In this document: in pieces, positions 712-24,994 of the stretch | Numbering within the stretch: the stretch's first letter is position 1 | How the letters are laid out: every line of letters starts with the position of its first letter | Virus record (IMG/VR): IMGVR_UViG_3300037484_000601 | Coordinates: 1 to 29,423 of that record | Direction: 5' to 3' (one strand) | DNA length: 29,423 nt | Source: a virus | Taxonomy: Duplodnaviria; Caudoviricetes | Notes under the pieces: generated by a model | Told to the model about the DNA's origin: nothing | Database searches by the model: none | What the model saw: only the letters and a program-made list of their open reading frames with translations | Program-made: the position numbers and the translations under genes

Positions 712-718
712 TATTTAT
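712..718 (-). promoter_or_regulatory. T4-like late promoter core (ATAAATA)
   Basis: The minus strand reads GATAAATA about 25 nt upstream of the structural ORF; the same core recurs in other intergenic gaps. Confidence 0.5.
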
Positions 719-2559
719 CATTCGTAGATCACGGTGCAGTTAATACCCGCGCCAATGGTAACAACAGTAAGACCAGTTGAGAACGAGATTCCTTTGAAAT
801 CAAGAGAAGCAATTTGATTTGGAGCTATCGTGGCGATGATCGTACCAGAAGCTGCAGTGTTGTCATATAGAGTGATCGAAGTTCCAGTATTAGCATTGAT
901 GACAACGGTTTGTAAGTTACCGGCTCCAGATTTCAACACTTGCGTTACAGCACCAGCGATGTTTTTGCCCACTGGTTGTGTTTCGGAAGGACCTAATCTT
1001 GAAATAAAGGCAATAAATGCATTGAGAGAGACGTTTGTCGTTGAACCACCTGTATTAAAATTTTCAAGTCTAGCAGGTAAATTCGTTGTAGAAGACCATG
1101 ACGTATTGAAACGTTGAGTGTGAATTGTGATACCGTCAATAAAGAAGTATACTCGAAATGGAGTATACATGATCTCAAGCACGTGTGTGATAGTATCTAT
1201 CACATGAGTCAATCCAGCTTTTCCGTTGAATGTCCCATTGATAATTCGTGTATCTACTCCTGCTTTTCTTGTAACAACCGCCAACTCAACACCGGATAAC
1301 TCAAAAAATGCTCCATCATTAATATTGAAAGCACCAATGCGCCGTGTATTGTTGACTATACCAGTATCTGTAATCTGTATCGATGCACGAAACTTATTGA
1401 TTGCACCAGCTACGTATCTTGCGTTTTGAACGGTTTGAATAGAAGTAGCATTATTTGTTGTTGTTCCCGTGGAAAGTGTAAGAGTTCCACTAGTAACAGC
1501 TACAGTACCACCGGTTCCTATGGAAGGAGTCCAGAAGTTTGTATCTAACGTGCTATCTGGAAACGCACTACCTACTAATTGAAAGATTGGAACAGATACA
1601 GCTTCACCGTTTGGAGAATAATATTGAGTGAATCCTGCACGATCTGTAATTTGATTAATTTGGGTTTGCAACCAACCATCGTCGCTTAAGCTACGAGGTA
1701 ATTGATTTGCAATAGGGACCGTGATAGCTTGAAGTCTAAAGAAAGTAGTCGTAATGGTTGTATCATTGTGAACTCGAACTCTATAGTAAGCACCAAACGC
1801 GCCTACATTGATTCCAAAATTACCGATAGATGCGTAAAATTTGTATGAATCGGATATGTCCCAATTGGTACCATCTTGACTTTGATCCAAATAAACAGTA
1901 CAATTTTGATCTGCATTTAGGAAAATTTGAATCATCGACGCTGTTATGTTAGATGCGGTAGCACCAACATAAGTAGCACCACCAGCAAGATTTACTGTTG
2001 ATGAATTAGTAGAATCGATTGCAATATCTTGATTGATTAAGAGACCACCTTCCGGGGTCGCTCTCACATCAACATAGTTACCGGTAAGAATGTTCTTACC
2101 GGTAAGAATTGATTTAACAACCAACGCATCATCACTCGGCTTAACTATAGCATCAGATTCAATAATAGATCCGTTTCCTGCAAATGGATGTAAAATTGAT
2201 TGAAGTCTAAAGAAAGTTTGATTAACTCCACCGTTTGTATAAACTATACGATAAAATTTAGAGTGTGGTTGTGCTTGTAATAATGCAGCAGATGGATGAG
2301 GTGTATATGTTGCAGAATGCAAATGATCCCAATTAACACCATCAGAAGAAAACTGAATCTGTAAGCCATCTGTTGCACTTTCCTGATCCGAGATGATAGA
2401 CACAGCAACCTGAGCGTAAGAAAGTACATTTGTTGAAGGCCCTGTGAAGACCCCGTTTGCAAGTAATGGAGCGGTTGATGAATTTGCTACATCAACAATA
2501 TCATTACTACCTACAGGCACTGCACCGTTTTGATCAATGGGAGTTGGTTGATAGCTCAT
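718..2559 (-). CDS. Probable virion fibre/decoration protein with two tandem beta-rich repeats and a lectin-like C-terminal part
   Basis: 613-aa T/G/S/N-rich ORF with AAGG SD. Internal duplication: NSSTAPL..SSDGVNWD..FYRIVYTN..FFRLQSI versus NSSTVNL..SQDGTNWD..YYRVRVHN..FFRLQAI. Lies in a late-type structural cluster. Confidence 0.6.
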   Translation of the reverse strand: MSYQPTPIDQNGAVPVGSNDIVDVANSSTAPLLANGVFTGPSTNVLSYAQVAVSIISDQESATDGLQIQFSSDGVNWDHLHSATYTPHPSAALLQAQPHSKFYRIVYTNGGVNQTFFRLQSILHPFAGNGSIIESDAIVKPSDDALVVKSILTGKNILTGNYVDVRATPEGGLLINQDIAIDSTNSSTVNLAGGATYVGATASNITASMIQIFLNADQNCTVYLDQSQDGTNWDISDSYKFYASIGNFGINVGAFGAYYRVRVHNDTTITTTFFRLQAITVPIANQLPRSLSDDGWLQTQINQITDRAGFTQYYSPNGEAVSVPIFQLVGSAFPDSTLDTNFWTPSIGTGGTVAVTSGTLTLSTGTTTNNATSIQTVQNARYVAGAINKFRASIQITDTGIVNNTRRIGAFNINDGAFFELSGVELAVVTRKAGVDTRIINGTFNGKAGLTHVIDTITHVLEIMYTPFRVYFFIDGITIHTQRFNTSWSSTTNLPARLENFNTGGSTTNVSLNAFIAFISRLGPSETQPVGKNIAGAVTQVLKSGAGNLQTVVINANTGTSITLYDNTAASGTIIATIAPNQIASLDFKGISFSTGLTVVTIGAGINCTVIYE

Positions 2560-2573
2560 TTACTTACCTTTAC

Positions 2574-5291
2574 TTAGATTACGAACCATTCAGATCCGCT
2601 ATATTGTACTTGAATTGACAGATATTGTCTATTTAGGATTGCAGTTGCAGCTCCGTCAATGTTCACTCCGTTTCCGCTAACCGTTATGGTGTTTACCGTT
2701 GCATCGATCTTCTTGATGTTAAAGATCGGATTGCCTACAGGTAAAGCTGGTAAAGTAACAGTAAATGGAGCAGTAGTAGCGTCTGCCAAAATTGTGAAGT
2801 CAGACAGCGTGATCAAATATCCAGAAGTCTTAGACGCAACGATTCCGTATGGGCCGGTTGGGCCGGTTGGGCCGGTAACAGAGGGACCAGTTGGACCGGT
2901 AACAGTTGAAGCCGGGCCAGTCGGGCCTGATGCACCCGTCGGTCCAGGTGGTGACTGAAGTTCAGACCAGTGTGCAAGATCGTTCTTCGGCAGAACTGTT
3001 GAAGTTAATGCAACAGTACAGATCCACAAAGAATTGATCAGCGCGTTTGCTGAACTTTCTGAGAAAACGTAATCACCAACGTTGTAAGCTGTACCTGATA
3101 CCCAATTTCCACGATTAGTCAGGCCTGTTCCTGGGTTTCCCTGCGGACCAGTTGGACCTGTTACAGTTGAGGCAGGCCCCGTAGGACCTGTAACGCTTGG
3201 GCCAGTAGGACCATCTGTTCCTGTAGGTCCAGTAACAGATGGTCCAGTGGGCCCTGTAACTGTTGATGCTGGACCAGTTGGCCCCGTAGGACCTCCGAAT
3301 GCTCCAGTCGGACCGACTGGTCCTGTCGGTCCAGTCACAGAAAGTCCGATGATACCCTGTGCGCCAGTTGGGCCTGTAGGCCCGCCTGGAGTGCCACGCG
3401 GACCTGTTGCTCCAGTCGGTCCGGTACCACCGATTAGTCCCTGCGCACCGGTTGCTCCTGTAGCACCGGTGACACCGACCATACCTGTGGGGCCTGTAAT
3501 CCCCGGCCCTGTAGGTCCGGTCACAGTTGAAGCAGGTCCTGTTGGCCCAGTAACGCTTGGTCCCATTTCTCCAGTTGGTCCGGTTGGACCACCATCACCT
3601 GTTGGCCCAGTAACGCTTGGTCCCATTTCTCCAGTTGGACCAGTAACTGAAGGTCCAATTGACCCCGTTGGACCAGTAACTGAAGGGCCGGTAGGTCCAG
3701 TTGCACCAACAATACCGATTGAACCGGTAGGCCCGGTTGCGCCAGTAGGACCTATGATATTAGAAGGTGCACCAGTTGGTCCGGTTGCACCAGTGGGGCC
3801 AGCCACAGTTGAAGCAGCACCGATTGGTCCTGTAGCACCGGTAGGACCAGTTATAGAAGCTCCGGTAGGGCCTGTTACGGTTGAAGCAGCTCCGGTGGGG
3901 CCTGTAATAGAAGGGCCTGTTGCTCCGGTTGCTCCGGCAGGTCCTGCAATTGTGGATGCCGCACCAGTAGCACCTGCCAAACCTTGAGGCCCCGTCGGAC
4001 CGGTCACGGTTGAAGCAGCACCGATTGGCCCTGTAGCACCGGTAGGTCCTGTAATCGAAGCTCCAATAGGACCCGTAGGTCCTACCATTGTAGATGCGGC
4101 CCCGGTAGGACCGGTAATTGAAGGTCCCGTCGCTCCTATTGCACCAGTAGGTCCTGTAACATTTGAAGCAGCTCCGGTAGGACCGGTGACACTTGGTCCA
4201 GTTGCCCCTGGTGCTCCTGTGGGTCCTGCTACAGTAGATGCAGGACCTGTAGCACCTGCCAAACCCTGAGGACCTGTAGGACCTGCCACAGTTGAAGCAG
4301 CACCGATTGGCCCTGTAGCACCGGTAGGTCCTGTGATCGATGCTCCAGTAGGACCAGTTACATTAGAGGCTGCTCCAGTGGGTCCTGTAATCGAAGCTCC
4401 AATAGGCCCTGTAATTGAAAGACCTGTAGGACCGGTGGGTCCAGCTACAGTTGAAGCTGCACCAGTTGGTCCAGTAACTGAAAGACCTGTAGGACCTGTG
4501 GGTCCTGCTACAGTAGATGCAGGACCTGTAGCACCTGCCAAACCCTGAGGACCTGTAGGACCTGCCACAGTTGAAGCAGCACCTGTTGATCCAGTAGCAC
4601 CAGTTGGGCCTGTGATCGATGCTCCAGTAGGACCTGTAAATCCAGTGGGTCCAGTTACTGTTGAGGCAGCTCCAGTAGGTCCTGTAATTGAAAGACCAGT
4701 AGGTCCCGTTGGACCCGCTACCGTTGAAGCAGCACCGGTCGGTCCGGTAATTGATGGACCTGTAGCGCCAGTTGCACCAGTAGGACCTGCAATCGTAGAT
4801 GCTGCACCGGTAGGACCGGTTATAGAGGGACCTGTAGCACCTATCGCACCGGTGGGTCCAGTCACATTTGAAGCTGCACCTGTTGGACCCATCGGTCCAG
4901 ATGGGCCTGTTGGACCGACGCTTGAAATCGCAGCACGGATAGCACCGTAGGCTTTGACCGTACCCCCACCACTAAAAGTTGAGCTAGTATTAAGATAGAT
5001 TACAGTTGGGGCTAGAAGATTGAATCTCTTGGTATACAGAGGAACTTCAAAAACCCCAGGGTTTGTGAAAGTTTCTCCTTGAAATCCCAGCCCTTCAACT
5101 ATGATGCCAGGATCATTATCTACAGTTCCGCTCAGTGTTCCTGACACGGAAGCAGTAGTAAGAATTCCAATATAAGCAGTAACGTCCCAACTACCTACAG
5201 GCAATAAGATTGAAGTGAGTGAAGTAGATTCTCCAGACGTCAAGGCGATCGCGTTTGCCTGTAGTACAATTGATTCGTAGTAATTTGCCAT
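2574..5291 (-). CDS. Collagen-like (Gly-Pro-Thr-rich) virion fibre protein
   Basis: About 700 aa of interrupted G-X-Y repeats (GPT, GAT) with AAST(V/I)A and S(I/V)T linkers. Globular N-terminus; an inserted CBM-like module ([21 protein letters not shown]....W); phage fibre-type C-terminal domain ([31 protein letters not shown]). ATG at 5291 has an AGGA SD. Confidence 0.9.
3538..3638. repeat. 41-bp identical direct repeat at 60-bp spacing within the collagen gene
   Basis: cctgttggcccagtaacgcttggtcccatttctccagttgg occurs at 3538-3578 and 3598-3638. Confidence 0.9.
4216..4583. repeat. 89-bp identical direct repeat (279-bp offset) within the collagen gene
   Basis: cctgtgggtcctgctacagtagatgc...gttgaagcagcacc occurs at 4216-4304 and 4495-4583. 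Confidence 0.9.
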
Positions 5292-5354
5292 CAAGTGGTC
5301 CTAGCCTAGATAAATGTTAATGCTCTCAAGAGTGAGATATAATGATCTTACTTC

Positions 5355-5361
5355 TATTTAT
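5355..5361 (-). promoter_or_regulatory. T4-like late promoter core upstream of the collagen gene
   Basis: The minus strand reads CATAAATAG about 65 nt upstream of the collagen ATG. Confidence 0.5.
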
Positions 5362-5700
5362 GAAACCAACTTATCTCTATATCAAACGCCATAATGTCAC
5401 CGGGTTGATGTACTTCGGGAAGACTAAGAAAGATCCGTTGAAGTATTCTGGATCTGGAAAGTATTGGAAAGACCATCTTAGGATGCATGGCGCTGACGTT
5501 ACAACAATTTGGTATGTGTAGAGACTAAAGCTAAATTCTCAGCGTCTGCATTAAAGCGTTTTGCTCTATCTCCAGTTTCTTCGGAAACTAGAGCAAAAAT
5601 TTCAGCTGCAAACAAAGGCAGACGAGGAAACACAAGTAAAGTAGTATCTCAAGAAACCAAAGACAAAATCTCAGCTGCAAATAAACTTTGCCTGGGCTAA
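5360..5700 (+). pseudogene. Decayed Seg-like GIY-YIG homing endonuclease with NUMOD3-like repeats
   Basis: 5360-5521 encodes MKPTYLYIKRHNVTGLMYFGKTKKDPLKYSGSGKYWKDHLRMHG...WYV* (GIY-YIG N-terminus). A different frame then encodes SSETRAKISAANKG and SQETKDKISAANK. The central part of the gene is missing. Confidence 0.8.
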
Positions 5701-5720
5701 TAGAAGATTGGAGAAACAAT

Positions 5721-6353
5721 ATGCCATTTAGACTACCATCAGGAGACACCGTAAAGTGGATCGGCGATCTCAGTTTGCAAGATGCAGAAATTTTGACTCA
5801 ATTTGGATTACATACTCAGAGAATCTTGGAGTTTGGATCTGGTGGAAGTACGCAGATCTTTGCTCAGTGTAAACCTGATGAAATCATCAGCATCGAGACT
5901 GATCCAGCCTGGATCACTCTTACTCAACAACGCCTTGATCAAATTTCTGACAAGACCGATGTTAAGTTTATCAGCTATGATCTCTATCCAGGTTTTGTAA
6001 ACGGCAAGACTTTTGATCTGATCTTGGTAGACGGAATTGACTATCTTCGTAGAGACTTTGCGATCAACTCTTGGAAGTTGCTTGAGGTAGATGGATTTAT
6101 GATCTTTCATGATACGAAGCGCTTTCAAGATTTTCAGAACGCCTCTTGGGTTGCTCAGCTCTATCACAACGAAATCAAGCAAATTGATGTCAATGCTCGC
6201 TGTTGTAACGGTAAGAGCAGCAACATGACGATTCTCCACAAGAAGTCACATGAGCCGTATGAGAATTGGAACTACACTGAGAATAAGCCACTTTGGGCAT
6301 ACGGTATGCCTGGACAACCTACTGACATGTCTCTATGGAGTCCCGGACAATGA
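5721..6353 (+). CDS. Class I SAM-dependent methyltransferase (sugar/small-molecule O-methyltransferase-like)
   Basis: ILEFGSGGST (motif I), ISIETD, FDLILVDG and FMIFHD. GGAG SD before ATG 5721. No DNA-methyltransferase PC or (D/N)PPY motif seen. Confidence 0.85.
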   Translation: MPFRLPSGDTVKWIGDLSLQDAEILTQFGLHTQRILEFGSGGSTQIFAQCKPDEIISIETDPAWITLTQQRLDQISDKTDVKFISYDLYPGFVNGKTFDLILVDGIDYLRRDFAINSWKLLEVDGFMIFHDTKRFQDFQNASWVAQLYHNEIKQIDVNARCCNGKSSNMTILHKKSHEPYENWNYTENKPLWAYGMPGQPTDMSLWSPGQ

Positions 6354-7342
6354 GAATAGGAATCTACGGTATATGCAAAAATGAGAAAGACTTCGTTGAG
6401 CGATGTTTGAATTCGGTGAAAGAAGCTGATGTCATCGCGTTCTGTGACACCGGCTCAACCGACGGAACATGGGAGTTACTCCAGAACTTTGACCACCCAA
6501 ATAAGATCGTCAAGCAAATCTGCGTCAGTCCATGGCGCTTTGATGATGCTCGCAACGTCGCGTTGATGTCACTTCCACCTGATGTAGACATGTGTATCTC
6601 TATTGACGCTGATGAGATGCTTGAGCCTGGTTGGCGCGAAGTTCTGACAGCAGCAATCACCAAAGATGCAGCTACTCTTGGAAAGATTCCAGAAAGATAC
6701 AATCATCGATTCAAGACAATCTGGGACTGGACTGGTGCCGGTACTAACATCAGTGAACACTGGCATGAACGTATCCATGCAAGACATAACTATCGTTGGA
6801 AGCTGCCTGTTCACGAAGTTCTGGTGAAGAGCGATGGATCTGATGAAGTTGCTTGCTGGGTTCCAGAGCTGATGATGGTACAGAAGCCTGACACAACAAA
6901 GAATCGTGGTAGCTATTTACCAATGCTTGAACAGTCTGTCAAGGAAGATCCAAAGCGCTGGAAGTCTCTTTCGTTCTTGGCCGGTGAGTATATGAATGCT
7001 GGTAGAATCGATGACGCAATCAAAACGATGCAAACATGTCTTGAGCTTCCAGATTCTGACAAGGCTTTCTTATCATATCAGCTGTCCACTATATACCAAC
7101 GTAAAGGCGACATGGACTGGGCAATCATCAGCATGTTGAACGCTGGTAAGTTTGCTCCACACGTTCGCGAGTACGTCGTCTATCTCGGACAGGTTTACTT
7201 AGCGGCAGGCAGAAAGTCAGATGCTCTCTCTGCATTTAATTGTGCTCTCTTGATCGCTGAGAGAACTTATGGGTACGAGTACAACCCTCAATGTTGGGGT
7301 GAAACTTTTGAGGAGTACGTAAAATCATGCCGAATGTTATAA
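6350..7342 (+). CDS. GT2-family glycosyltransferase with C-terminal TPR-like helices
   Basis: YGICKNE, DTGSTDGT, PWRFDDARN, IDADE (DxD) and YRWKLPVHE, followed by a helical TPR-like tail. ATGA overlap with the methyltransferase stop. Confidence 0.9.
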   Translation: MRIGIYGICKNEKDFVERCLNSVKEADVIAFCDTGSTDGTWELLQNFDHPNKIVKQICVSPWRFDDARNVALMSLPPDVDMCISIDADEMLEPGWREVLTAAITKDAATLGKIPERYNHRFKTIWDWTGAGTNISEHWHERIHARHNYRWKLPVHEVLVKSDGSDEVACWVPELMMVQKPDTTKNRGSYLPMLEQSVKEDPKRWKSLSFLAGEYMNAGRIDDAIKTMQTCLELPDSDKAFLSYQLSTIYQRKGDMDWAIISMLNAGKFAPHVREYVVYLGQVYLAAGRKSDALSAFNCALLIAERTYGYEYNPQCWGETFEEYVKSCRML

Positions 7343-7842
7343 AGACGTATAGCGGAGTAATGTTTGATCTTGTAAACTTCAACCCAGAAGATATCTTGAT
7401 TGAAGACATTGCACATTCTCTATCTCTGACTGCAAGTGGTGGGCATTCTAATTGTCTTTATTCAGTAGCTCAACATTGTGTATGGTGTGCTCAACAAGAA
7501 GGAGTGTTCTTCAAAGGACTATATCGTAGAGACATGCAGTATCCACTATATCGGCTGATGCATGATGGAGCTGAAGCTTATCTCGGGGATATTGTCACTC
7601 CTCTTAAAGTTTTGCTTCCAGAATATAAGAAGAGAGAAGATGCTCTACTTGACATGATCTATCAGAAATTCTGCGGTGGTTCTGAAACTGATTTAATAGA
7701 AGAGGAAGTTAAGTTCATAGATCGTAAAGCTCTTGACTATGAAATGAGCTTTATCTGGGAAGATCACTGCCATAAAGTTGCATGGTCTGCAAAGAAATCA
7801 GAACGTGAGTTCTTGAAGATGTTTAAGAGGTTAAGTAAATGA
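7327..7842 (+). CDS. HD-domain phosphohydrolase (YfbR/YfdR-like deoxynucleotidase family)
   Basis: IEDIAHSLS, YSVAQH, LMHDGAEAYLGDIVTPLK and VKFID motifs. Confidence 0.85.
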   Translation: MPNVIKTYSGVMFDLVNFNPEDILIEDIAHSLSLTASGGHSNCLYSVAQHCVWCAQQEGVFFKGLYRRDMQYPLYRLMHDGAEAYLGDIVTPLKVLLPEYKKREDALLDMIYQKFCGGSETDLIEEEVKFIDRKALDYEMSFIWEDHCHKVAWSAKKSEREFLKMFKRLSK

Positions 7843-8918
7843 AGAAACTTCGTATTGCAATTTACACGATCTGTCTTAATGAGGAAATATTCGCGCAACG
7901 CTTCATGGATTGTGCCAAGGAAGCTGACGGTATATTTGTAACTGACACCGGCTCCACAGACAACACGGTAAAGATTCTTGAAGAGAACGGTGCAATCGTT
8001 CATAAGATTAAGATGTCTCCGTGGCGCTTTGACATTCCTCGCAACATCTCAATGGACTTTGTTCCAGCTGACTATGACATTCTTGTTTGTATCGACTTAG
8101 ACGAGATCCTCTCTCCAGGCTGGGCAGAAGAGATTCGAAAAGCTTGGACTCCAGGTACTACTCGTATGAGGTACCAGTACATTTGGAATCATCTTTCTGA
8201 TGGACGCCCCGGAATCACATTCTGGTATGACAAGATCACATGCCGGCATGGATATCGCTGGGTTAAACCAGTCCATGAGATCTTGCAGTACTACAACGGC
8301 GAAGAGAAGCAGGCATTCTGTGAAACCTTTACCTTAGCTCACTTCCCTGACAATACCAAGTCTCGCGGTAGCTATCTGCCTCTACTAGAGCAAGGCTGTC
8401 GTGAAGAACCAAACGACGATCGAAACTCTCACTACCTAGGCCGAGAGTACATGTACTATGGAAAGTACGATCAAGCAATTGCTGAACTGCAAAGACATTT
8501 GTCTCTTCCTTCTGCTACCTGGAATGCAGAACGCTGTGCATCAATGAGGTTTATCGCTCGAAGTTGCGTTGCAAAGGGTGATTATGTCAATGCTGAACTC
8601 TGGGCTTTGAAGGCCTGTGCAGAATCATCGATTGATCGTGAACCTTGGCTCGAGCTGGGTAAAGTTTACTATGCAACTCAGAATTGGTCAGGTCTCTATG
8701 CGGCGATGAAGCGCCTTCTAACAATTGTCGAGAGGCCGAAGAGCTACATTTGTGAAGTAGATGCTTGGTATTCTCTGCCTCATGACTACTGCTCTATTGC
8801 TGCTTTCAATCTTGGAATGATCACTGAATCGGTTGCTCAGTGTGAAAAAGCAATTGAACACGATCCATCTGACCCAAGGCTTAAGTCAAATTTACAGTTG
8901 ATGCAGTCCAAGTTATAA
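7839..8918 (+). CDS. GT2-family glycosyltransferase with C-terminal TPR repeats (paralog of 6350-7342)
   Basis: YTICLNEE, DTGSTDNT, PWRFDIPRN, IDLDE, YRWVKPVHE, SRGSYLPLLE, HYLGREY and REPWLELG. Confidence 0.9.
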   Translation: MKKLRIAIYTICLNEEIFAQRFMDCAKEADGIFVTDTGSTDNTVKILEENGAIVHKIKMSPWRFDIPRNISMDFVPADYDILVCIDLDEILSPGWAEEIRKAWTPGTTRMRYQYIWNHLSDGRPGITFWYDKITCRHGYRWVKPVHEILQYYNGEEKQAFCETFTLAHFPDNTKSRGSYLPLLEQGCREEPNDDRNSHYLGREYMYYGKYDQAIAELQRHLSLPSATWNAERCASMRFIARSCVAKGDYVNAELWALKACAESSIDREPWLELGKVYYATQNWSGLYAAMKRLLTIVERPKSYICEVDAWYSLPHDYCSIAAFNLGMITESVAQCEKAIEHDPSDPRLKSNLQLMQSKL

Positions 8919-8919
8919 T
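8891..8919 (+). promoter_or_regulatory. Sigma70-type early promoter for the TS-like gene
   Basis: TTTACA (8891-8896), N17, TATAAT (8914-8919), followed by GGAG SD and ATG 8938. Confidence 0.75.
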
Positions 8920-8937
8920 CATTCTATTGGAGACGAT

Positions 8938-9840
8938 ATGACATCAGAACAAAACTTTCGCCAGATCTTTGTTGACTTGAAACAAAAGGGGAAGATGACT
9001 TCTCCTCGCGGTCTTCCAGTCATCGAGATCGAAAATTACACATACGAGCTTCCAGCTCGAGTACGCTTTTGCAACTTTGAAGCTCGCAAGCTCAACCTTG
9101 ACTACATCAAGCGTGAATTCCTCTGGTACCTACGTGGTAACAAGCATGACCTGTCTATCTTGAAGTATGCCAAGATGTGGGAAAACTTGGTGACTCCAGA
9201 CCAGTCAATTAACTCAAACTACGGACAGTATATCTTCAATGTACCTACAGAAGTTACTTACAACCAGTTTGACTTTGTAGTCAACCAACTCATTGAAGAT
9301 CGAGACAGCCGTCGTGCTTCTATCTCTATTCTTAAAAGCTCGCAGCTTATTAAGACTAACAAAGATGTACCTTGTACATACTCGTTGAACTTCCGCATTC
9401 GCGAGAGTCGATTGAATATGTCAGTTCATATGAGAAGTCAAGATGCGGTCTTTGGAATGGGAAATGATGCACCATGCTTCTCATTCATTCATGAGATGGT
9501 ATGGGCTGCTCTTACAAAACAATATCCAGACCTAGAGATGGGGTCTTACCACCACATTGCAGACTCTTTCCATGTCTACGACCGTCACTTTGAAGTGATG
9601 GAAAAGATTGCAGAAGGAGATAAGTACATTCCGATTGAGTGCCCTGTAATCTCAAACGCAGATGAAGTCAAGTATCTGCAGTCACAGATCCACGGTACTT
9701 ATGATGAAGAGTACTTTAGCCCGGCAATACGACCACGATATGCAAATCCACAGATGAAGGAAGAACTAAGTGACATTCTCAAGTTCTACCAAAAATCTAT
9801 CCCATTTTCGAACTGGTTAACCAGCTTCGACAAACCCTAA
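8938..9840 (+). CDS. Thymidylate synthase superfamily enzyme, dCMP hydroxymethylase-like
   Basis: EFLWY, NSNYG, DSRRA, catalytic DVPCT, MRSQDAVFGMGND and SFHVY. It has Asp where ThyA has its dUMP-selecting Asn. Confidence 0.8.
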   Translation: MTSEQNFRQIFVDLKQKGKMTSPRGLPVIEIENYTYELPARVRFCNFEARKLNLDYIKREFLWYLRGNKHDLSILKYAKMWENLVTPDQSINSNYGQYIFNVPTEVTYNQFDFVVNQLIEDRDSRRASISILKSSQLIKTNKDVPCTYSLNFRIRESRLNMSVHMRSQDAVFGMGNDAPCFSFIHEMVWAALTKQYPDLEMGSYHHIADSFHVYDRHFEVMEKIAEGDKYIPIECPVISNADEVKYLQSQIHGTYDEEYFSPAIRPRYANPQMKEELSDILKFYQKSIPFSNWLTSFDKP

Positions 9841-9857
9841 ATCAACAGGAGAATCAC

Positions 9858-10211
9858 ATGAAAGTAGTATGCATCCAATTGAACAGCGGCGTCGAGATCA
9901 TCGGACGTCTTAACGAAGACAACACCATCTTTGCTGGTGGAGAATTCTTTCCAGACGGGACCGTCTGGAAACCTACCGGAGTAGTGACTCTGGAAAAGAT
10001 CCGCAGTATCGGCGTGCAACAGGTAGGTCCGAAAGAAATGGGAATCTCTTTCTTCCCATGGTCGATCGCAAACCAAGATGGAGCGATCTCTTTCAACCTC
10101 GACAACTGTGCAACTTCAATCTACCCAGCTGAAAAGGCAGTGGAAGACGGCTATCTGTCGCAAACTTCACCAATCGTTCAAGCTCACAAGCCAAGCATCC
10201 AGATGGTGTAA
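9858..10211 (+). CDS. Small phage protein, probable Sm-like fold
   Basis: AGGAG SD. The L.SG.EIIG...LE.......FFPW...Y...TS.I pattern is typical of T4-like phage Sm-like proteins. Confidence 0.55.
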   Translation: MKVVCIQLNSGVEIIGRLNEDNTIFAGGEFFPDGTVWKPTGVVTLEKIRSIGVQQVGPKEMGISFFPWSIANQDGAISFNLDNCATSIYPAEKAVEDGYLSQTSPIVQAHKPSIQMV

Positions 10212-10230
10212 CAAGTAATTTCAAAGCTTT

Positions 10231-10275
10231 CAATGCCTTCCAAATAAATAAGAGAAATCTTATTGGGAGGCATTG
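10231..10275 (+). promoter_or_regulatory. RBS-sequestering hairpin containing a late promoter core
   Basis: CAATGCCTTCC (10231-10241) pairs with GGGAGGCATTG (10265-10275), with one G-U pair. Inner stem AATAAGA-GAAA-TCTTATT. ATAAATA at 10244-10250. Confidence 0.75.
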
Positions 10276-11147
10276 TGCTTTTAGAAATTTCTACATTAGA
10301 TGGGATAAAGAAAACTCAAAAAGTTAAGATATCTTGTGATAGGTGTCAGCAAGTAATAGAAAAATTTGTGTACTCTGTAATTAGTCAACGTGAAAAACGT
10401 AATGGTGAAGATGTTTGCAGAAGATGTTCAACAATCGAATACAATCAAAATCGTCCAATAGAAGTTAGAAAGAAAGCAGGAGATGGATTTAAGAATAAGT
10501 ATCTTGGAAAGAAACTAGAAGAGATTGTAGGAGAAAAGAAAGCTATCGAAATAAAAAGAAAATTCTCAGAATCTAGTTCAGGAGAAAATAATTCTAACTT
10601 TGGTGGTAAGTACTCACGTGGTTTTGCTGATCGCCCGTTATACGGTTTATGGGAATCTGTTTATGGGATAGAAAAATCAAAGCAAAAGAAACTGCAATTA
10701 TCTAAGCTGAATAGTGGATCTGGAAATCCAATGTTTGGTAAACCAGCACCAAAGAAATCTGGAAATGGAATAAGTGGATGGTATGGAAATGTCTATTTTC
10801 GTTCTTTGTTAGAACTGTCTTATATGATGCATTTAGATTCTCTTTCAATCAAATACATTAGTTGTGAATCTGAAAAATATAGATTTGAATATGAAATAGA
10901 TGGCATCAAGAGAAATTATTTTCCAGACTTTTTCATTCCATCAACTAACGAATACATCGAAGTTAAACCTTCTCAAATGTTGAGCAATGAAATTGTTATT
11001 GCTAAGGCTAAAGCAGTACAAGCATTGGGACACAAATTTACTTTTATGACTCAAAAAGATATAATGAAGATTAAGAAAGACGAGTTAATGAGTTTGATTA
11101 GTACCGGTAAAGTAACAATAGATAAGGGAAAAGAAAAATGGCTTTGA
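10275..11147 (+). CDS. Free-standing homing-type endonuclease (Zn ribbon + NUMOD-like repeats + TnsA-like PD-(D/E)xK domain)
   Basis: CDRC..CRRC; GENNSNFG and GSGNPMFGK; FRSLLE..YFPDF..YIEVKP. Visibly AT-richer than its neighbours. GTG 10275 follows GGAGG. Confidence 0.75.
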   Translation: MLLEISTLDGIKKTQKVKISCDRCQQVIEKFVYSVISQREKRNGEDVCRRCSTIEYNQNRPIEVRKKAGDGFKNKYLGKKLEEIVGEKKAIEIKRKFSESSSGENNSNFGGKYSRGFADRPLYGLWESVYGIEKSKQKKLQLSKLNSGSGNPMFGKPAPKKSGNGISGWYGNVYFRSLLELSYMMHLDSLSIKYISCESEKYRFEYEIDGIKRNYFPDFFIPSTNEYIEVKPSQMLSNEIVIAKAKAVQALGHKFTFMTQKDIMKIKKDELMSLISTGKVTIDKGKEKWL

Positions 11148-11728
11148 AATCAATAGTGATAGAGGGATGTGATAGGTTAGGAAAAGACACTCTCATAAAG
11201 GGTATCCAGAACGAGCTCGGATACTTTCAAACTCTGCACTATCAGAAGCCTGAGAAGCTAGATTACTTCAACGGTAGTCTGTTCAGTTATCAGTTTGCAT
11301 CGTTCAACACAATGTTCCACATTCTGTCAAGTAATGCTAGATTCATTTTGAATCGAGCTCACTTGGGTGAAGCTGTATACTCAAAGCGTTATCGTGATTA
11401 TGACGGTAACTATGTCTTTAGTCTTGAGAAAGATCACAGACGTTTTTGGGATGAAGATACACACATCTTCCCTCATAAAGACTCGTACGAGAAGACAACT
11501 TTGCTCGTGCTTCTTTACACGTCTGACTTTAGCTTTATCAAAGATGACGGTCAATCTTTTGACTTTGAGAAGAAGGAAGAAGAACAAGCAGACTTCTTGA
11601 AAGCGTTTGACAAGTCGATCATCGAAAACAAGATCATGATCGATGTAAGCAATGGCATGGGTGGATATCGACCAGCTTTAGAGACTCTTAAAGCTGTTAT
11701 TGATGCTTACAAAATGGAAGCAATGTGA
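11138..11728 (+). CDS. Thymidylate-kinase-like nucleotide monophosphate kinase
   Basis: P-loop IVIEGCDRLGKDT and LNRAHLGEAVY (DR-type motif). Confidence 0.75.
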   Translation: MALKSIVIEGCDRLGKDTLIKGIQNELGYFQTLHYQKPEKLDYFNGSLFSYQFASFNTMFHILSSNARFILNRAHLGEAVYSKRYRDYDGNYVFSLEKDHRRFWDEDTHIFPHKDSYEKTTLLVLLYTSDFSFIKDDGQSFDFEKKEEEQADFLKAFDKSIIENKIMIDVSNGMGGYRPALETLKAVIDAYKMEAM

Positions 11729-11979
11729 TGAGAGTTTTTAGAGTTACTACCAAGATTCACACTCCTGTAGGAATCTTTACAGGTATAGTGTCAGATGACT
11801 TCGAGACAGTTGAAAATGCTTTTGATGAGCGTGTCAAACTACAAGAAGTCATCTACAATTGTGACACCTTCACATTCAACTCAGATCAGGACGAGGGAAC
11901 CGAAGTTACCCTCAACCAGCTCGTTGTCAAAAACTCTGTGTTTGAGTTTACAGTAATAGCAGTAGACTTGCCAGATTAG
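11728..11979 (+). CDS. Hypothetical protein
   Basis: TGATG overlap with the kinase stop; last gene of the plus-strand block. Confidence 0.65.
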   Translation: MRVFRVTTKIHTPVGIFTGIVSDDFETVENAFDERVKLQEVIYNCDTFTFNSDQDEGTEVTLNQLVVKNSVFEFTVIAVDLPD

Positions 11980-12716
11980 CCGTTCAGCTTGTAATCACGG
12001 ATCTCTCTTTTAGAGGCGGTCCGTTTTGTCTCTATGTATTCTTCTACCTTTTGTTCTCTACCACCGTAGTAAGTGGTAAGAACACGAGGAATACGTGTCA
12101 CACTAAACCAAACTCCTTCTACGAAGCGAAACTTCTTACCATCTTGAAAGTCACGATGGCTCTTGTCAGCTTCTGCTTTTTGTATAGCTTTGCGCTTTGC
12201 TCTTTCTTGGCGACGAGAGTCACCTGAAGAGAGTTTAAGCTTACCGTCACGAGGATCAACGTAGAATGTACCAGGTTCTTCTTCTACACAACCAGCAGCA
12301 TCTCTAAAAGTGCCGTATCGAGACATGCAGTTGCTAGTGTAGTAGATGCGTCCGTCATCACCCACGAAGGTGTGAGTTTCAACGTTGCGGGTAAACAGAG
12401 CACGTAGATCAGATGCCTTTGCGACATCAGTATTGCACATCTTGGCGATCTCAGAATAAACATTGTTCCAATGACGGCCAATGCTAGAGGTAAGGAAGCG
12501 CTTTGCTACTTGGTAGAGATAAGAACGATCTTTGCCGTCCCATCCAACCTTCTTAGCGCGCATAGGAAGCACGCGGTCACAATACTCGTCATTGACATTC
12601 AGATCTTCATCAATCTTGAAGTTCTTTGCCAGACGATAATCGTTGGACTCGGTGCGATAATACGAAACACCACGACGAGCAGGCTCGGTGATGACTTTTT
12701 GCATATCATTGCGCAT
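11976..12716 (-). CDS. Hypothetical basic protein
   Basis: 246 aa with a strong AAGGAG SD and its own promoter region. Motifs MRNDMQKVI.E, RFL.SSIGR.WNNVYSEI and FYVDPRDGKL. Confidence 0.8.
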   Translation of the reverse strand: MRNDMQKVITEPARRGVSYYRTESNDYRLAKNFKIDEDLNVNDEYCDRVLPMRAKKVGWDGKDRSYLYQVAKRFLTSSIGRHWNNVYSEIAKMCNTDVAKASDLRALFTRNVETHTFVGDDGRIYYTSNCMSRYGTFRDAAGCVEEEPGTFYVDPRDGKLKLSSGDSRRQERAKRKAIQKAEADKSHRDFQDGKKFRFVEGVWFSVTRIPRVLTTYYGGREQKVEEYIETKRTASKREIRDYKLNG

Positions 12717-13892: not shown

Positions 13893-14399
13893 CTAATACC
13901 CTTTGCGTAACTCTGTTGGGACGTTTGCCTTGATCCACAAGTCCATCTTGGTACCTACTTTTGACGAGACTTTTTCAATCGGAAAGATTGCAAAAGCATC
14001 CATCTCAGGATAATCTGGACCATTCTTGTTGATCACCATTGACTCACAGAATAGAGCTTTAGTGTCAAGTTCATCAACTTCTATGTAGAAGAGATGCATG
14101 TCACGATCTTTCTGGTATGAGTGCTGCCCGAGATCAATGGTTTCTTCACTCTCAAACTGAAGATCAATTCCAGTTTCTTCGCGCAGTTCACGAAGAGCGG
14201 CCTTGAGGTGATGTTCTCCTTCTTCTGCTCCACCTTTCGGAAAGTCCCAACGATTACCGCCGTTAGTTGGGTGAGCTAACAACCAACCTCGTCCGGTCAC
14301 GTTGATGATGAAGCCACAGGTACATTTTTCTTTCATTGGATCTTTCTTGAAATCATCTTCAGTATGATGCCAGGGGTATCGAGGAGATGTAGTCATCAT
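13893..14399 (-). CDS. Nudix hydrolase (T4 NudE-like)
   Basis: Nudix box RWDFPKGGAEEGEHHLKAALRELREETGI, plus PEMD. Confidence 0.9.
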   Translation of the reverse strand: MMTTSPRYPWHHTEDDFKKDPMKEKCTCGFIINVTGRGWLLAHPTNGGNRWDFPKGGAEEGEHHLKAALRELREETGIDLQFESEETIDLGQHSYQKDRDMHLFYIEVDELDTKALFCESMVINKNGPDYPEMDAFAIFPIEKVSSKVGTKMDLWIKANVPTELRKGY

Positions 14400-15206: not shown

Positions 15207-16565
15207 TTACTTCTCCTCGAATTCAACCAGGTAACGGATGTTGACCTGAGAGTTTTTGTAGACGATCATCTCGTTGTTCATGATGCCGGAGACGCCAGGC
15301 TTTGCGAACGTAGAGTCATAGCCTTTCTTCGGCAGAGTCTCGTAAGAACCCTTCGGAATGTACTGCTCACCAAGAGCAAAGTCAACGAGGAACATGAAGC
15401 AGTTCTTGTCAATTGCACCGCGATCCCATGTACCACCGCGAGCATAGTTCAAAGCTTTGGTAGACTGGTCAGAACCGTAGATACCATCGCCGAACATACG
15501 ACCGGTCACGTGGAATGAACCGGACTTCGGAGGACAGAACAGACCGCTCTTCAAGATCGACAGAACGTTGAACATACGGGTGCCGTGCCACAACATCTGA
15601 ACGTTCTTGTTAACTGCTGGCCATGCGGCGATCTCCTTCTCAAAGGCAGACTTTGCATCAGGCATGGTCACCTCGTAGAAGCGAATCGGCTTCATGTTCT
15701 TGGAATCATGCTTCGAGTTGATGCTGTCAAAGAACATCTTCTCGATCTTTGCGATCATGATCTTGTCATCACAGATCTTGATTTGAGCAGTGAAGAGGTT
15801 CGGTGTGTCAGACATAGAAGTAGCAACCGCGATGTCTTTAGCAGACTTTAGGCGGGCATCAGCCAGATCAGCAGAAGCTTCCAACTGGTCAAGCAGAGTG
15901 CTTTGGCTTGTCAGAGTGTTGTAGGTGGAGAAGAAGTTCTTGTGCCAGCCTCGAGCATGTCCCACGGTCTGTGGAACGAGCATCAAGTAGGTGTTGAGGT
16001 TCTCGATGAATGTCTTGGCGTCAAAGTCAGACTTGGCAACGAACGGAGCCAACTCATCAAGAGCAATACGAGCCTGTTTGATTGTGTCTTTTGTGACGAC
16101 GCCGATGGGAGTAGAGATGATACCGGTCTTCAGGTCAATGTCCATCTTACCACCAGAGGCCTTGACCAGTTCGTGGCGGTTGGCTTCAACGAGGCGGTCA
16201 ATCAACTTGGAGAGTTCAGTATCGCCGCTGCCTAGTTGCTTTTTAGCAGCTTCGCGAACAACTTCCTTGGAGAGAGCAGGGCCGGTGGGTGCAGTAACAG
16301 CTTCAGTAAGGACTGTGATCTCACGATAGGGAGCTTTATAGCTCGGAGTACCTTCTTTGCCACGTCCGTTAACCTTTTCTCTAATCTTTCGATCGAGTTC
16401 AGTTCGAGACATTTGCTTTGGAGGATCTTCGGTGCAGGTTTTACCAACCCGACCATATTTGACAATGACGGAGCCGTCATCTCTTAAAATGTACTCCCAA
16501 AACTTATTATTATTTTGAAGAGCATCTGCACAAACAAACTTGCGGTGTTCAGTGACTTTAGCCAT
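15207..16565 (-). CDS. PARP-family ADP-ribosyltransferase (WGR + helical regulatory + catalytic domains)
   Basis: WGR-like NNNKFW..VKYGRVGK; REG-like GVVTKDTIKQAR..NTYLMLVP; catalytic LWHGT, TGRMFGDGIY, STKALNYA and NNEMIVY..QVNIRYL (H-Y-E triad). Confidence 0.92.
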   Translation of the reverse strand: MAKVTEHRKFVCADALQNNNKFWEYILRDDGSVIVKYGRVGKTCTEDPPKQMSRTELDRKIREKVNGRGKEGTPSYKAPYREITVLTEAVTAPTGPALSKEVVREAAKKQLGSGDTELSKLIDRLVEANRHELVKASGGKMDIDLKTGIISTPIGVVTKDTIKQARIALDELAPFVAKSDFDAKTFIENLNTYLMLVPQTVGHARGWHKNFFSTYNTLTSQSTLLDQLEASADLADARLKSAKDIAVATSMSDTPNLFTAQIKICDDKIMIAKIEKMFFDSINSKHDSKNMKPIRFYEVTMPDAKSAFEKEIAAWPAVNKNVQMLWHGTRMFNVLSILKSGLFCPPKSGSFHVTGRMFGDGIYGSDQSTKALNYARGGTWDRGAIDKNCFMFLVDFALGEQYIPKGSYETLPKKGYDSTFAKPGVSGIMNNEMIVYKNSQVNIRYLVEFEEK

Positions 16566-17277: not shown

Positions 17278-18525
17278 TCACTCTTCCTCTGCAACAGACT
17301 GCAACAGGTTCAATTGACGCAGACCGAAGCGTTCCTTCAAGAACTGCTTCTCGTAGAACTCATTGTAGTCCGGTTCTTTACCCGAGAACTTCAGCATGAT
17401 CAACTTGAAGTATGGGTGAGGATTAGTTCCTTCCTGAGAAAACTTCAATGCCATCGCCTTACGATCATGATGGTCAATCGCAGCTTCGCCTCGGTGAATC
17501 TTGCGAGAAGCTGCGCATTCATTCAATACACGGTCAACTTCAGTGCGAATCTCATTGACGTCACGAACAACACGGGCTTCGATCTCATTGATCTCAGTGA
17601 GGTCACAATCTTCACCAGCCAATGTAGACTTAACGTCATCCAGAGATTCGTTTAGCACCATCACCGCGATGTCTCGCTCGCGCAGGTTGGTCATCACACC
17701 GTGACGGTCACAGTACCACTTGGTCTTCACCTTGACCATGCTACCATCGATAAACTGGACGATGATACCCTCAATGTTCTCAGTTTCCAGGTGAAACTTC
17801 CAGAAGTCAGCTTCGGTCTTCAGAGTAACCAGCAGATCATCGCGATCATCAACGATGCCGATCTCATACTTGGCACAGAGATCTTCAAGTGCTGCACGGT
17901 TCATATACTCACCAGTGACGTTGTCACGAATGTGTAGCAGCTTTAGTTCGTCTTGGGGATAAGCAAGAACGATACGAGCAGTTGGTGAAGTCCACTCAAA
18001 GATAGCAGTCTTATCATGGTCAACGCACCATTCACAGAACAACATCATTCCATGTTGAGCTACAGTGTCCAGAGATAAGACATGAGCTCGAGCTTGTTTA
18101 GCAACGTCAGACTCAAAGGACTTCTTTGACTTGAAGGTGAAGTTTGCACCGGTGGTGATCGAAGTTACACCGTCTACAGCTTTCACGGTGTGAATCATTG
18201 AGCCATCACGCTTGTCCATGATACGAGTAACCTTGGACCAATCCAGAGCAGCAAACTGAGTTTCCGGAATCTGGTTCAGGTTGAAAAATTTATGAAGTGG
18301 ACGGGCAATCACACGACCGTTCTTGTCAAACACGACACCGCGAGCTTCGCGAGAGTACATCTCATCGAAGGTGCCGTCGCATGAGATGATGTAGGAACAG
18401 ACAACGGTACCGTTGTCTTGGTCCATGAAGCGGATTTCTTCTTTGTGAGCGACAGCTTGACGCATCAAGATGTCATTCACAAGAATCGGGAAGGGTAAAT
18501 TTTGGCGCAGTCCGATGTAGGTCAT
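17278..18525 (-). CDS. rnlA: RNA ligase 1 (T4 Rnl1-like)
   Basis: REARG, KFFN, motif I MDKRDGSMI, FEWTSPTARIV, IEGIIV and VKVKTKWY. Confidence 0.9.
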   Translation of the reverse strand: MTYIGLRQNLPFPILVNDILMRQAVAHKEEIRFMDQDNGTVVCSYIISCDGTFDEMYSREARGVVFDKNGRVIARPLHKFFNLNQIPETQFAALDWSKVTRIMDKRDGSMIHTVKAVDGVTSITTGANFTFKSKKSFESDVAKQARAHVLSLDTVAQHGMMLFCEWCVDHDKTAIFEWTSPTARIVLAYPQDELKLLHIRDNVTGEYMNRAALEDLCAKYEIGIVDDRDDLLVTLKTEADFWKFHLETENIEGIIVQFIDGSMVKVKTKWYCDRHGVMTNLRERDIAVMVLNESLDDVKSTLAGEDCDLTEINEIEARVVRDVNEIRTEVDRVLNECAASRKIHRGEAAIDHHDRKAMALKFSQEGTNPHPYFKLIMLKFSGKEPDYNEFYEKQFLKERFGLRQLNLLQSVAEEE

Positions 18526-24233: not shown

Positions 24234-24464
24234 TGGTTTGAGCTTCTTTCTCTTCATGTGCAACTTTCTAGCTCCTCTAAAGCGAAGCCAGTTGGCATTC
24301 CACTTAACTGTAGTAGCCTTCGTAAGAAAAGCTGCACCGCTGTGAAATTCCACAAAGGGCGCTCTAATGAATTTAACTTTTTGCCAGCACTTGCGAACAA
24401 TCTTCTGCAAACAACCAGCAGGTGAAGTTCGAGCTCTGCGAAGCTGCCGTCGTCTCATGAGCAT
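24222..24464 (-). CDS. Small, very basic hypothetical protein
   Basis: TAATG overlap with the upstream stop and fills the gap exactly; no motif recognised. Confidence 0.5.
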   Translation of the reverse strand: MLMRRRQLRRARTSPAGCLQKIVRKCWQKVKFIRAPFVEFHSGAAFLTKATTVKWNANWLRFRGARKLHMKRKKLKPVYK

Positions 24465-24994
24465 TAGTGAGGCTTGATCACCATCAAACGATTCGTGTAG
24501 GCCATGATTGCGGCAGAGATCACGAAGGTGAGGTGAATGATAACTTGGAACGTCATCGTTTGTTGTGTAAGGTTGGGAGCTTCAATGAACGTTTTCAGCA
24601 AGTGGATCGACGAGATGCCAACGAGGGCCATTGCCAACTTTACTTTCAGTGAGCCAGCATCAACGTGTTCTAACCATTCTGGTTGGTCTGGGTGATTTTC
24701 TAGGTACAATCGCGAAACGAAAGTCTCATAGCCACCGACGATAACCATCAGCATCAAGTTAGCGATCATGACTACGTCGATGAGCCCGAGAACGACGAGC
24801 ATGATCTCAGTTTCCGTTACCGTTGTCATGTGTTGAATCAAGTGTACAAGTTCAACACCGAAGTGGTACACGTACACGATCTGGGCGATGATCAAGCCAA
24901 AGTACAGGGGAGCTTGCAACCAACGGCTAGAGAAAATCAAGTTAGAGATTATCTTCAGTATGTTGTTCTGATGTTGAGTTACAGATGAGGTCAT
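24464..24994 (-). CDS. yqhA: UPF0114/TIGR00645 (YqhA-like) membrane protein
   Basis: IFSSRWLQAPLYFGL, VLGLIDVVMIANL, GGYETFVSRL, PEWL and LKVKLA..GISSIHLLKTF. Confidence 0.88.
   Translation of the reverse strand: MTSSVTQHQNNILKIISNLIFSSRWLQAPLYFGLIIAQIVYVYHFGVELVHLIQHMTTVTETEIMLVVLGLIDVVMIANLMLMVIVGGYETFVSRLYLENHPDQPEWLEHVDAGSLKVKLAMALVGISSIHLLKTFIEAPNLTQQTMTFQVIIHLTFVISAAIMAYTNRLMVIKPH

Follow-up and report, generated by a model that had tools for sequence, protein, structure and literature searches.

What do glycosyltransferases (GTs) encoded beside a predicted collagen-like fiber do for a phage? This question is raised by IMG/VR record IMGVR_UViG_3300037484_000601, an uncultured-virus contig from sediment whose entire 29,423 bases were analyzed (hereafter the window), and in which the gene of a threonine-rich collagen-like protein lies divergent from a run of genes encoding a methyltransferase and two soluble GTs of the GT2-TPR type (named GT1 and GT2 as genes; Table 1). 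Phage GTs are usually read as enzymes that modify DNA or lipopolysaccharide (LPS) (PMC10202952, PMC7029224, PMC7824862, PMC10611076). At this locus we consider it likely, judging from sequence and gene context, that the phage O-glycosylates its own virion fibers with the collagen-like protein as acceptor, because this GT family adjoins such collagen genes in most related viruses and in many bacteria. We are less sure that the fiber glycan would carry a methyl cap. Since the closest relatives of the GTs lie on contigs of 345 to 389 kb with 98% to 100% completeness, the window probably covers part of a jumbo myovirus genome.

The collagen-like protein and its candidate modifying enzymes

All genes that the earlier note had placed between positions 2574 and 8918 are present, and the divergent arrangement that it described, with the collagen-like gene facing away from a methyltransferase-GT1-HD-GT2 run, was confirmed. 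The collagen-like protein scores 45.7 bits against PF01391 (cut-off 27.2) and contains 62 GPT triplets, 169 Thr and 76 Ser, with 21% Thr and 8% Ser in the repeat region, as well as 62 GPTG and 8 GPTGATG motifs of the type accepted by SgtA, the GT of Clostridioides difficile that modifies the collagen-like spore protein BclA3. Around 690 residues of Gly/Thr/Pro/Ala repeats separate its N-terminal domain from a small inserted domain that is 49% identical to a stretch of one relative (L011). Its description as a Thr/Ser-dense Gly-Pro-Thr collagen thus holds for composition, but the Gly-X-Y register breaks every few triplets: there are 47 runs with a median of 4 and a maximum of 13 triplets, interrupted by 22 G4G, 21 G6G and 2 G3G breaks, compared with 10 runs and a median of 12.5 triplets in BclA3. 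We rejected a continuous triple helix on account of these short runs. The C-terminal domain is predicted to form a homotrimer with an ipSAE of 0.96 (0.00 for the best of 3 controls), contact agreement of 100% and pLDDT of 97, though the ipSAE mark, which in calibration 20 of 30 solved pairs and 1 of 23 single chains attained, is only a rough guide for three copies; the look-alikes of this domain in the Atlas are of viral origin. We predict that the protein is a trimeric virion fiber and the glycosylation acceptor, while an exosporium-like nap or a stabilized triple helix, both proposed before, are speculative.

GT1 and GT2 are 36% identical to each other, carry no transmembrane stretch and score 41.8 and 28.6 bits against PF00535 (cut-off 23.3). 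GT2 falls into phrog_13126 with an E-value of 9e-107, and no NCBIfam model matched either window GT at its cut-off. Family residues D86/D88 and H146/E147 are invariant in all 51 alignment rows, and the motifs DTGS, DAD and PVHE are intact in GT1. A PDB search with the single GT2 sequence returned TPR proteins only; the nearest solved GT domains are those of GmaR, SunS and 7msk, the former two of which we take to be protein and peptide glycosyltransferases. The family is large, with E<=1e-20 for 7,819 of the 7,999 proteins scored and about 700 stretches in the viral collection; scanning viral contigs with a single sequence gave no match, whereas the alignment query did find relatives.

For comparison with SgtA, we located this enzyme in a genome (G166) via a primer printed in PMC7157674, where it is a protein of 358 aa with 10 Cys encoded directly upstream of a gene starting with the published BclA3 peptide. 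GT2 aligns to it with 23% identity over 357 aa (E 3e-17) and the family profile with 99.6% probability over 344 columns, while GT1 shows 30% identity in the GT domain only. A FastTree phylogeny of 96 representatives chosen from 316 candidates, which comes with a long-branch warning and holds no DNA-modifying GT sequences, sets SgtA apart from the phage/Bacillota family on a long branch, and groups GT2 with other large-phage copies (96% support) and GT1 in a clade of 13 rows (100% support), six of them from Bacillota or metagenomes. Given the end-to-end alignment of GT2 and the profile on the one hand and the position of SgtA outside the family on the other, the window's GTs probably work like SgtA by analogy, but we rejected them as its orthologues. 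The comparison suggested by the earlier note thus supports distant homology, end to end for GT2, and orthology for neither GT.

The methyltransferase most likely starts at an ATG with a GGAGA ribosome site rather than at a TTG at 5688. Its model (pLDDT 95) finds COMT/CCoAOMT-type enzymes as top Foldseek matches (TM ~0.6, 12% to 21% identity), with TrmR also among the fold matches, and its residues D104 and D131 are invariant in 44 of 44 rows. This COMT-like fold does not name a substrate, and a role on sugars is suggested by gene context.

Gene neighborhoods across viral and bacterial genomes

Co-occurrence was evaluated at the best 80 of about 590 confirmed GT matches in each of three collections (viral, bacterial and metagenomic). 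The GT has a collagen-like open reading frame no more than 5 kb away in 62/80 viral, 54/80 bacterial and 57/80 metagenomic loci, and in 35/39, 27/35 and 13/16 of those loci whose flanks reach 5 kb on both sides; among 30 viral loci with 9-kb flanks, the nearest collagen is no more than 2 kb away in 24. By comparison, a gene resembling thymidylate synthase (TS), a homologue of which follows GT2 in the window, is found within 5 kb of the GT at 5/80, 0/80 and 1/80 loci, respectively. The picture is the same after clustering of the viral loci, with collagen in 15 and TS in 4 of 18 clusters at 70% identity and in 8 and 3 of 9 clusters at 60% identity. Approached from the other side, 80 of 172 viral TS loci include 7 with the GT (5 distinct phages) and 6 that have a Thr-rich collagen no more than 5 kb away, each of which also carries the GT, and the collagens near GT-free TS loci are poorer in Thr (0.01 to 0.33 of Y positions, n = 7) than the median of 0.55 (n = 85). 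RsoM2USA, a cultured Ralstonia jumbo phage with a complete genome of 343,806 bp, has kept the TS homologue (60% identity) and the neighboring deoxynucleoside monophosphate (dNMP) kinase (50% identity), neither of them annotated, and shows no GT and no collagen match. Conversely, the TS profile found no match in 6 of 6 near-complete GT-bearing virus records and reached E<=1e-10 in 3 of 25 GT-bearing records searched whole, DSL-LC01 being one of the three. The co-occurrence survey that the earlier note had called for, and its question of whether the GTs track with TS rather than with collagen genes, therefore came out in favor of collagen.

The methyltransferase shows a looser association. Its family, sampled at 53 viral loci, has this GT within 5 kb at 23 (directly upstream of the GT at 17), a collagen nearby at 15 and a TS within 5 kb at none; of the remaining 30 loci, some have other GTs or an epimerase as neighbors, and several have replication genes. 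Instead, 5 of 6 like-arranged loci (L009, L010, L011, L263 and L245) have an unrelated methyltransferase fused to GT1, and L167 has it fused to GT2; fusions of this kind also occur in 4 of 80 bacterial loci. Since two unrelated methyltransferase families occupy the same slot, these data point to a functional yet optional link to the GTs. The inclusion of the methyltransferase in the module, as proposed in the earlier note, is thus upheld by recurrent pairing and qualified by the loci that lack it. The HD-domain gene within the run fared worse: its homologue occurs in 0/245 loci and the inserts between GT1 and GT2 vary, and we rejected it as a member of the module. As a separate observation, phage DSL-LC01 (L001:9538-23944) combines two collagen genes, a gene annotated as tryptophan halogenase and the GT with a stand-alone homologue of the fused methyltransferase 2.9 kb away, and it encodes a second GT with a UDP-galactopyranose mutase nearer to its hydroxymethyl-dCMP-type TS.

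The GT1+GT2 pair is also found in Bacillota, in loci that lack TS; it adjoins collagen in L095, L114 and L130 and CDP-sugar genes in L086. Such cassettes, seen in L086 (8455-14190), L095, L100, L114 and L130, with the methyltransferase fused in the first three, and followed by nucleoside diphosphate (NDP)-sugar genes in Desulforamulus, are candidates for exosporium glycan machinery; BclA_C stayed below its cut-off in two bacterial collagen C-termini.

Candidate targets of the glycosyltransferases and known parallels

If the phage glycosylates its fibers, an early or middle promoter would drive the GT run before the late fiber genes are expressed, and the TPR part of the enzymes would grip unfolded GPTG/GATG repeats while the GT-A domain transfers sugar to Thr or Ser from an NDP-sugar of the host, which would be UDP-GlcNAc if SgtA is a guide. 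A host source is suggested because 3 of 3 complete relatives yielded no NDP-sugar epimerase. Provided that sugar transfer holds, we lean slightly toward GT2 as the enzyme that starts the glycan, GT1, the paralogue linked to a methyltransferase, as the one that extends it or serves other sites and the methyltransferase as the one that caps it. The chains would then trimerize via their C-terminal domain into a kinked, glycan-stiffened fiber. Solubility, folding, protease shielding and adhesion are candidate benefits, but both the division of labor between the GTs and the purpose of the coat are guesses. In a broader and more tentative version that we hold somewhat below even odds, a Thr-collagen, an initiating GT2-TPR, a second GT2-TPR and an interchangeable O-methyltransferase would form a mobile cassette common to jumbo phages and spore-forming Bacillota that builds a methyl-capped O-glycan on the interrupted collagen repeats and so gives virions a mucin-like glycofiber coat.

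Several observations weigh against fiber glycosylation as we propose it. All linkage evidence is gene neighborhood, the compared loci are related to one another and represent the top 80 of some 590 matches from each scan, and every chemical step is inferred. SgtA is only 23% to 30% identical to the window's GTs and branches outside their family. In PaBG, Y3 and HRDY3, the GT is found among structural genes with no collagen within 12 to 15 kb; all three genomes have collagens elsewhere, those of PaBG and Y3 being poorer in Thr (0.07 to 0.32 of Y positions). The methyltransferase family occurs without this GT at 30 of 53 loci, and a methyltransferase is missing from L006, which is the closest relative. 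Members of the closest clade have a hydroxymethyl-dCMP synthase and a kinase immediately after GT2 (5 of 80 viral loci, plus L263), DSL-LC01 carries the GT together with a TS bearing the hydroxymethylase signature, another GT-bearing record (G416) matches the TS profile, and the promoter motif of the GT run is of an early type as expected of DNA-modifying genes.

The last of these points concern the most serious rival, DNA hypermodification, in which hydroxymethyl-dCMP would come from the TS homologue, and hydroxymethylcytosine in phage DNA would receive sugars and methyl groups from GT1, GT2 and the methyltransferase as protection against restriction, with the collagen as a mere neighbor. Hydroxymethyl-dCMP synthases are marked by N177D and L143D/E with D169 retained (PMC13326640). 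The window's TS homologue carries this signature (L143D, D169, N177D), with Asp143, Asp169 and Asp177 invariant, and is thus of the dCMP hydroxymethylase type, which the earlier note had missed; together with the kinase, which accompanies it in 6 of 245 loci and in RsoM2USA, it suggests hydroxymethylcytosine DNA in this jumbo group. DNA glycosylation is a real rival because the GT-TS-kinase order (L006, L007, L009, L010 and L011; GT-TS in L263) resembles a DNA glycosylation cluster: known hoC clusters set GTs beside TS and kinase (PMC13326640), and GT-A DNA glycosyltransferases exist (bioRxiv 2023.12.21.572611). The early-type promoter and the TrmR-like fold match of the methyltransferase fit as well. 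Yet no more than 5 of 80 viral loci, and 0 of 80 bacterial ones, have TS near the GT, the GT is missing from 16 of the 23 closest TS loci, RsoM2USA has TS without GT, and bacteria carry the same cassette without TS. The TS homologue also has its own promoter between GT2 and TS, in the window and in L006, and 2 of 3 complete relatives encode a separate GT4 of 430 aa (G427 and G428), which in G428 stands beside the DNA-modification gene HMUDK_hel. Moreover, GT1 and GT2 are acidic (pI 5.6 to 5.8). The GTs of RB69-type hypermodification clusters are presumably of the GT-B fold. In the main text of PMC13326640 and of bioRxiv 2023.12.21.572611 the term TPR appears 0 times, though their supplements could list the family. 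We read the GT/TS adjacency as the border between a structural and a nucleotide block, and we regard DNA hypermodification by this run as unlikely.

GT1 and GT2 could also act mainly on other Ser/Thr-rich virion proteins such as capsid, tail or hair-like appendages, as the position of the GT among head and tail genes far from collagen in PaBG, Y3 and HRDY3, the glycosylated capsids and tail tubes of mycobacteriophages (as cited in PMC12619734) and the acceptance of Ser as well as Thr by SgtA (PMC7157674) would allow. These three phages are, however, distant family members (26% to 34% identity), and a Thr-rich collagen within 2 kb at 24 of 30 viral loci makes such targets quite improbable here. 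A third option, conversion of the host envelope by altered LPS or surface glycans that would block superinfection, matches the PHROG label beta-1,4-glycosyltransferase, the annotation of the PaBG gene as a lipooligosaccharide glucosyltransferase and the way in which GT islands of T4-like phages are usually interpreted in the literature (PMC7029224, PMC7824862). We find it very improbable given soluble, TPR-bearing GTs with no transmembrane stretch, the same GT pair beside collagens in gram-positive Bacillota and the lack of an NDP-sugar epimerase in 3 of 3 complete relatives.

Glycosylation of the collagen-like fiber, our preferred reading, has its closest parallel in SgtA, which adds beta-O-GlcNAc to Thr or Ser of GPTG/GATG peptides (PMC7157674). 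Both systems pair a GT-A + TPR enzyme of nearly the same length (358 aa for SgtA, 359 aa for GT2; alignable end to end) with an adjoining GPT-rich collagen-like gene, the phage protein being rich in GPTG and GATG. The phage differs by its two GT paralogues and methyltransferase, its divergent rather than tandem layout, the 23% to 30% identity of its GTs in a separate clade, its far more interrupted repeats (median 4 versus 12.5 triplets) and a predicted virion fiber in place of the exosporium. BclA of Bacillus anthracis is likewise a collagen-like protein with an O-methylated terminal sugar, 2-O-methylated anthrose (PMC6222408), but this window holds no sugar-synthesis genes, and the likeness drawn here is at the level of the glycan. 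Among viruses, A064R/A061L of chlorovirus PBCV-1 follow a GT-GT-methyltransferase logic in capping a virion glycan, and mimivirus L230 glucosylates viral collagen peptides; these are eukaryotic viruses with capsid N-glycan or hydroxylysine acceptors, and the relevant passages mention no TPR module (PMC9614988). Mycobacteriophage GTs modify virion proteins too (Freeman 2023, as cited in PMC12619734), though at capsid and tail-tube C-termini and not at collagen repeats. The cytosine hypermodification clusters of T4, RB69 and RL38J1 share the TS homologue (N177D, L143D), nucleotide kinase and adjacent GTs, but the main text describing them mentions no TPR (PMC13326640) and the window's GT does not track TS. 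PaBG, Lu11, Y3 and AD1 encode members of the same protein family (PHROG 13126; 26% to 34% identity), in single copy and not beside collagen. In agreement with the earlier note, no description of a collagen/GT2-TPR system in phages was found in the literature searched, most subscription papers and all supplements being outside its scope.

The logic of SgtA/BclA3 in a phage, while unproven, appears real and common and is well supported by gene context, and this window contributes the non-orthologous methyltransferase swap, the loss in RsoM2USA and an explicit test of the DNA alternative. If the GT family glycosylates fibers, virion protein glycosylation would be widespread rather than an oddity of mycobacteriophages and giant viruses, which would bear on host recognition, on the persistence of particles and on the antibody response. 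If also the mobile-cassette version were true, environmental phages would commonly bear O-glycosylated virion fibers, and in the methyltransferase-GT1 fusion one would have an extension/capping enzyme of a type still lacking for spore collagens. The SgtA study itself reports that no glycan-extending enzyme was found (PMC7157674), a gap that the GT1 clade might fill.

Promoters, passengers and other genes of the window

Table 1. Features of the window, with coordinates, strand and the evidence for each.
Feature	Position	Strand	Evidence
Thr-rich, heavily interrupted collagen-like protein, 906 aa	2574..5294	-	PF01391; tail-fiber PHROGs E 5e-53
N-terminal globular domain of collagen-like protein	4915..5291	-	phrog_11393 tail fiber, E 2.1e-7
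Small inserted domain of collagen-like protein, weakly CBM5/12-like	2940..3125	-	PF02839 E 0.005 (below cut-off, 14 residues matched)
C-terminal 88-aa domain of collagen-like protein, predicted homotrimer	2577..2840	-	structure prediction
GT1, soluble GT2-TPR glycosyltransferase, 330 aa	6350..7342	+	PF00535 + TPR; phrog_13126
GT2, soluble GT2-TPR glycosyltransferase, 359 aa, main family member	7839..8918	+	PF00535 + TPR
Class I S-adenosylmethionine methyltransferase, cation-dependent O-methyltransferase fold	5721..6353	+	Methyltransf_24 E 2.9e-4 (below cut-off); model
Predicted hydroxymethyl-dCMP synthase (TS homologue)	8938..9840	+	best PDB matches MilA, T4 dCMP hydroxymethylase
Thymidylate-kinase-like dNMP kinase, travels with TS homologue	11138..11728	+	phrog_761
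HD-domain dNMP phosphatase, passenger	7327..7842	+	phrog_318 E 3.8e-40
Predicted virion structural protein, 613 aa, directly downstream of collagen-like gene	718..2559	-	phrog_1645 E 5.9e-12
T4-late-like promoter motif CATAAATA toward collagen block	5355..5362	-	same position in 7/7 loci
Sigma70-type -10 element GATATAAT, weak -35, toward methyltransferase-GT run	5336..5343	+	7 copies vs 0.73
Early-type promoter TTTACA-17-TATAAT before TS-like gene	8891..8919	+	best of 26 sigma70 matches
Frameshifted homing-endonuclease remnant (GIY-YIG + NUMOD3 pieces), passenger	5342..5697	+	NUMOD3 E 1e-8, GIY-YIG E 0.07

The enzyme genes are tightly packed, with ATGA overlaps of methyltransferase/GT1 and HD/GT2 and a 16-nt overlap of GT1/HD. 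On the collagen strand of the divergent gap, ATAAATA was present in all 7 like-arranged loci examined, and it is not enriched across the window (15 versus 19.4 expected); we take CATAAATA to resemble the T4 late consensus. In the other direction, the -10 element GATATAAT occurs in 7 copies in the window versus 0.73 in shuffles, and a similar -10 is present in the corresponding gap of relatives. Because this class otherwise precedes non-structural genes, the methyltransferase-GT run looks early or middle rather than late. Placement in a late structural block may fit the collagen side, but not the GT run. A separate promoter at 8891 had also been proposed; it is the top sigma70 match, although the total of 26 such matches in the window is no excess over chance (21.9 +/- 4.6). 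It gains weight because 6 of 11 TATAAT sites have TTTAC(A/T) 17 nt upstream and lie 12 to 78 nt before a gene start, and L006 has the same TTTACA/TATAAT motif at the corresponding place before TS.

A broken homing-endonuclease gene at 5342-5697, which the earlier note had overlooked, separates the collagen half from the enzyme half; six relatives, whose divergent gaps are short, showed no such remnant there. With it, the window holds three homing-endonuclease-like genes in total, the others being a NUMOD3/TnsA-like gene at 10263-11147 and one at 27387-28250 that is GIY-YIG-like by eye and has no Pfam match.

With regard to DNA modification in relatives, the GT4 orthologues (L390:1120-3456 in G428 and L389:1134-2423 in G427) are 38% identical and far from TS, and GT4 with HMUDK_hel in G428 is a candidate DNA hypermodification pair. 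RsoM2USA encodes a different TPR protein 2.5 kb after TS (L387:23264-24595) with a C-terminal half that is GT-like by eye, and the words hydroxymethyl and collagen are absent from the RsoM2USA paper (PMC8504454). For a 442-aa protein near TS in L251, complete relatives gave 0 of 4 matches, a result that is uninformative for want of a positive control; aligning this protein with two others encoded upstream of TS produced noise.

Elsewhere, the window encodes T4-type topoisomerase subunits, an RNA ligase and the dNMP kinase, and the best cultured matches of the topoisomerase are phages of Xanthomonas, Pseudomonas and Ralstonia (42% to 48% identity). Positions 4554-12000 are spanned without a difference by one contig in each of two sediment metagenome runs, one of which may be the source of the record itself. 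No RNA data set was listed as containing the record, and run X3 covers a small share of it only. A strain variant in run X2 is about 86% identical over 1-2545, about 94% over 2516-3567 and identical from 4554 on; judged from this variant, variation seems greater in the structural block than in the enzyme run. On the minus strand, 15207-16565 encodes a phage WGR-PARP_reg-PARP protein near a Nudix hydrolase (13893-14399) and the RNA ligase (17278-18525), and 24464-24994 encodes a UPF0114 (YqhA-like) membrane protein.

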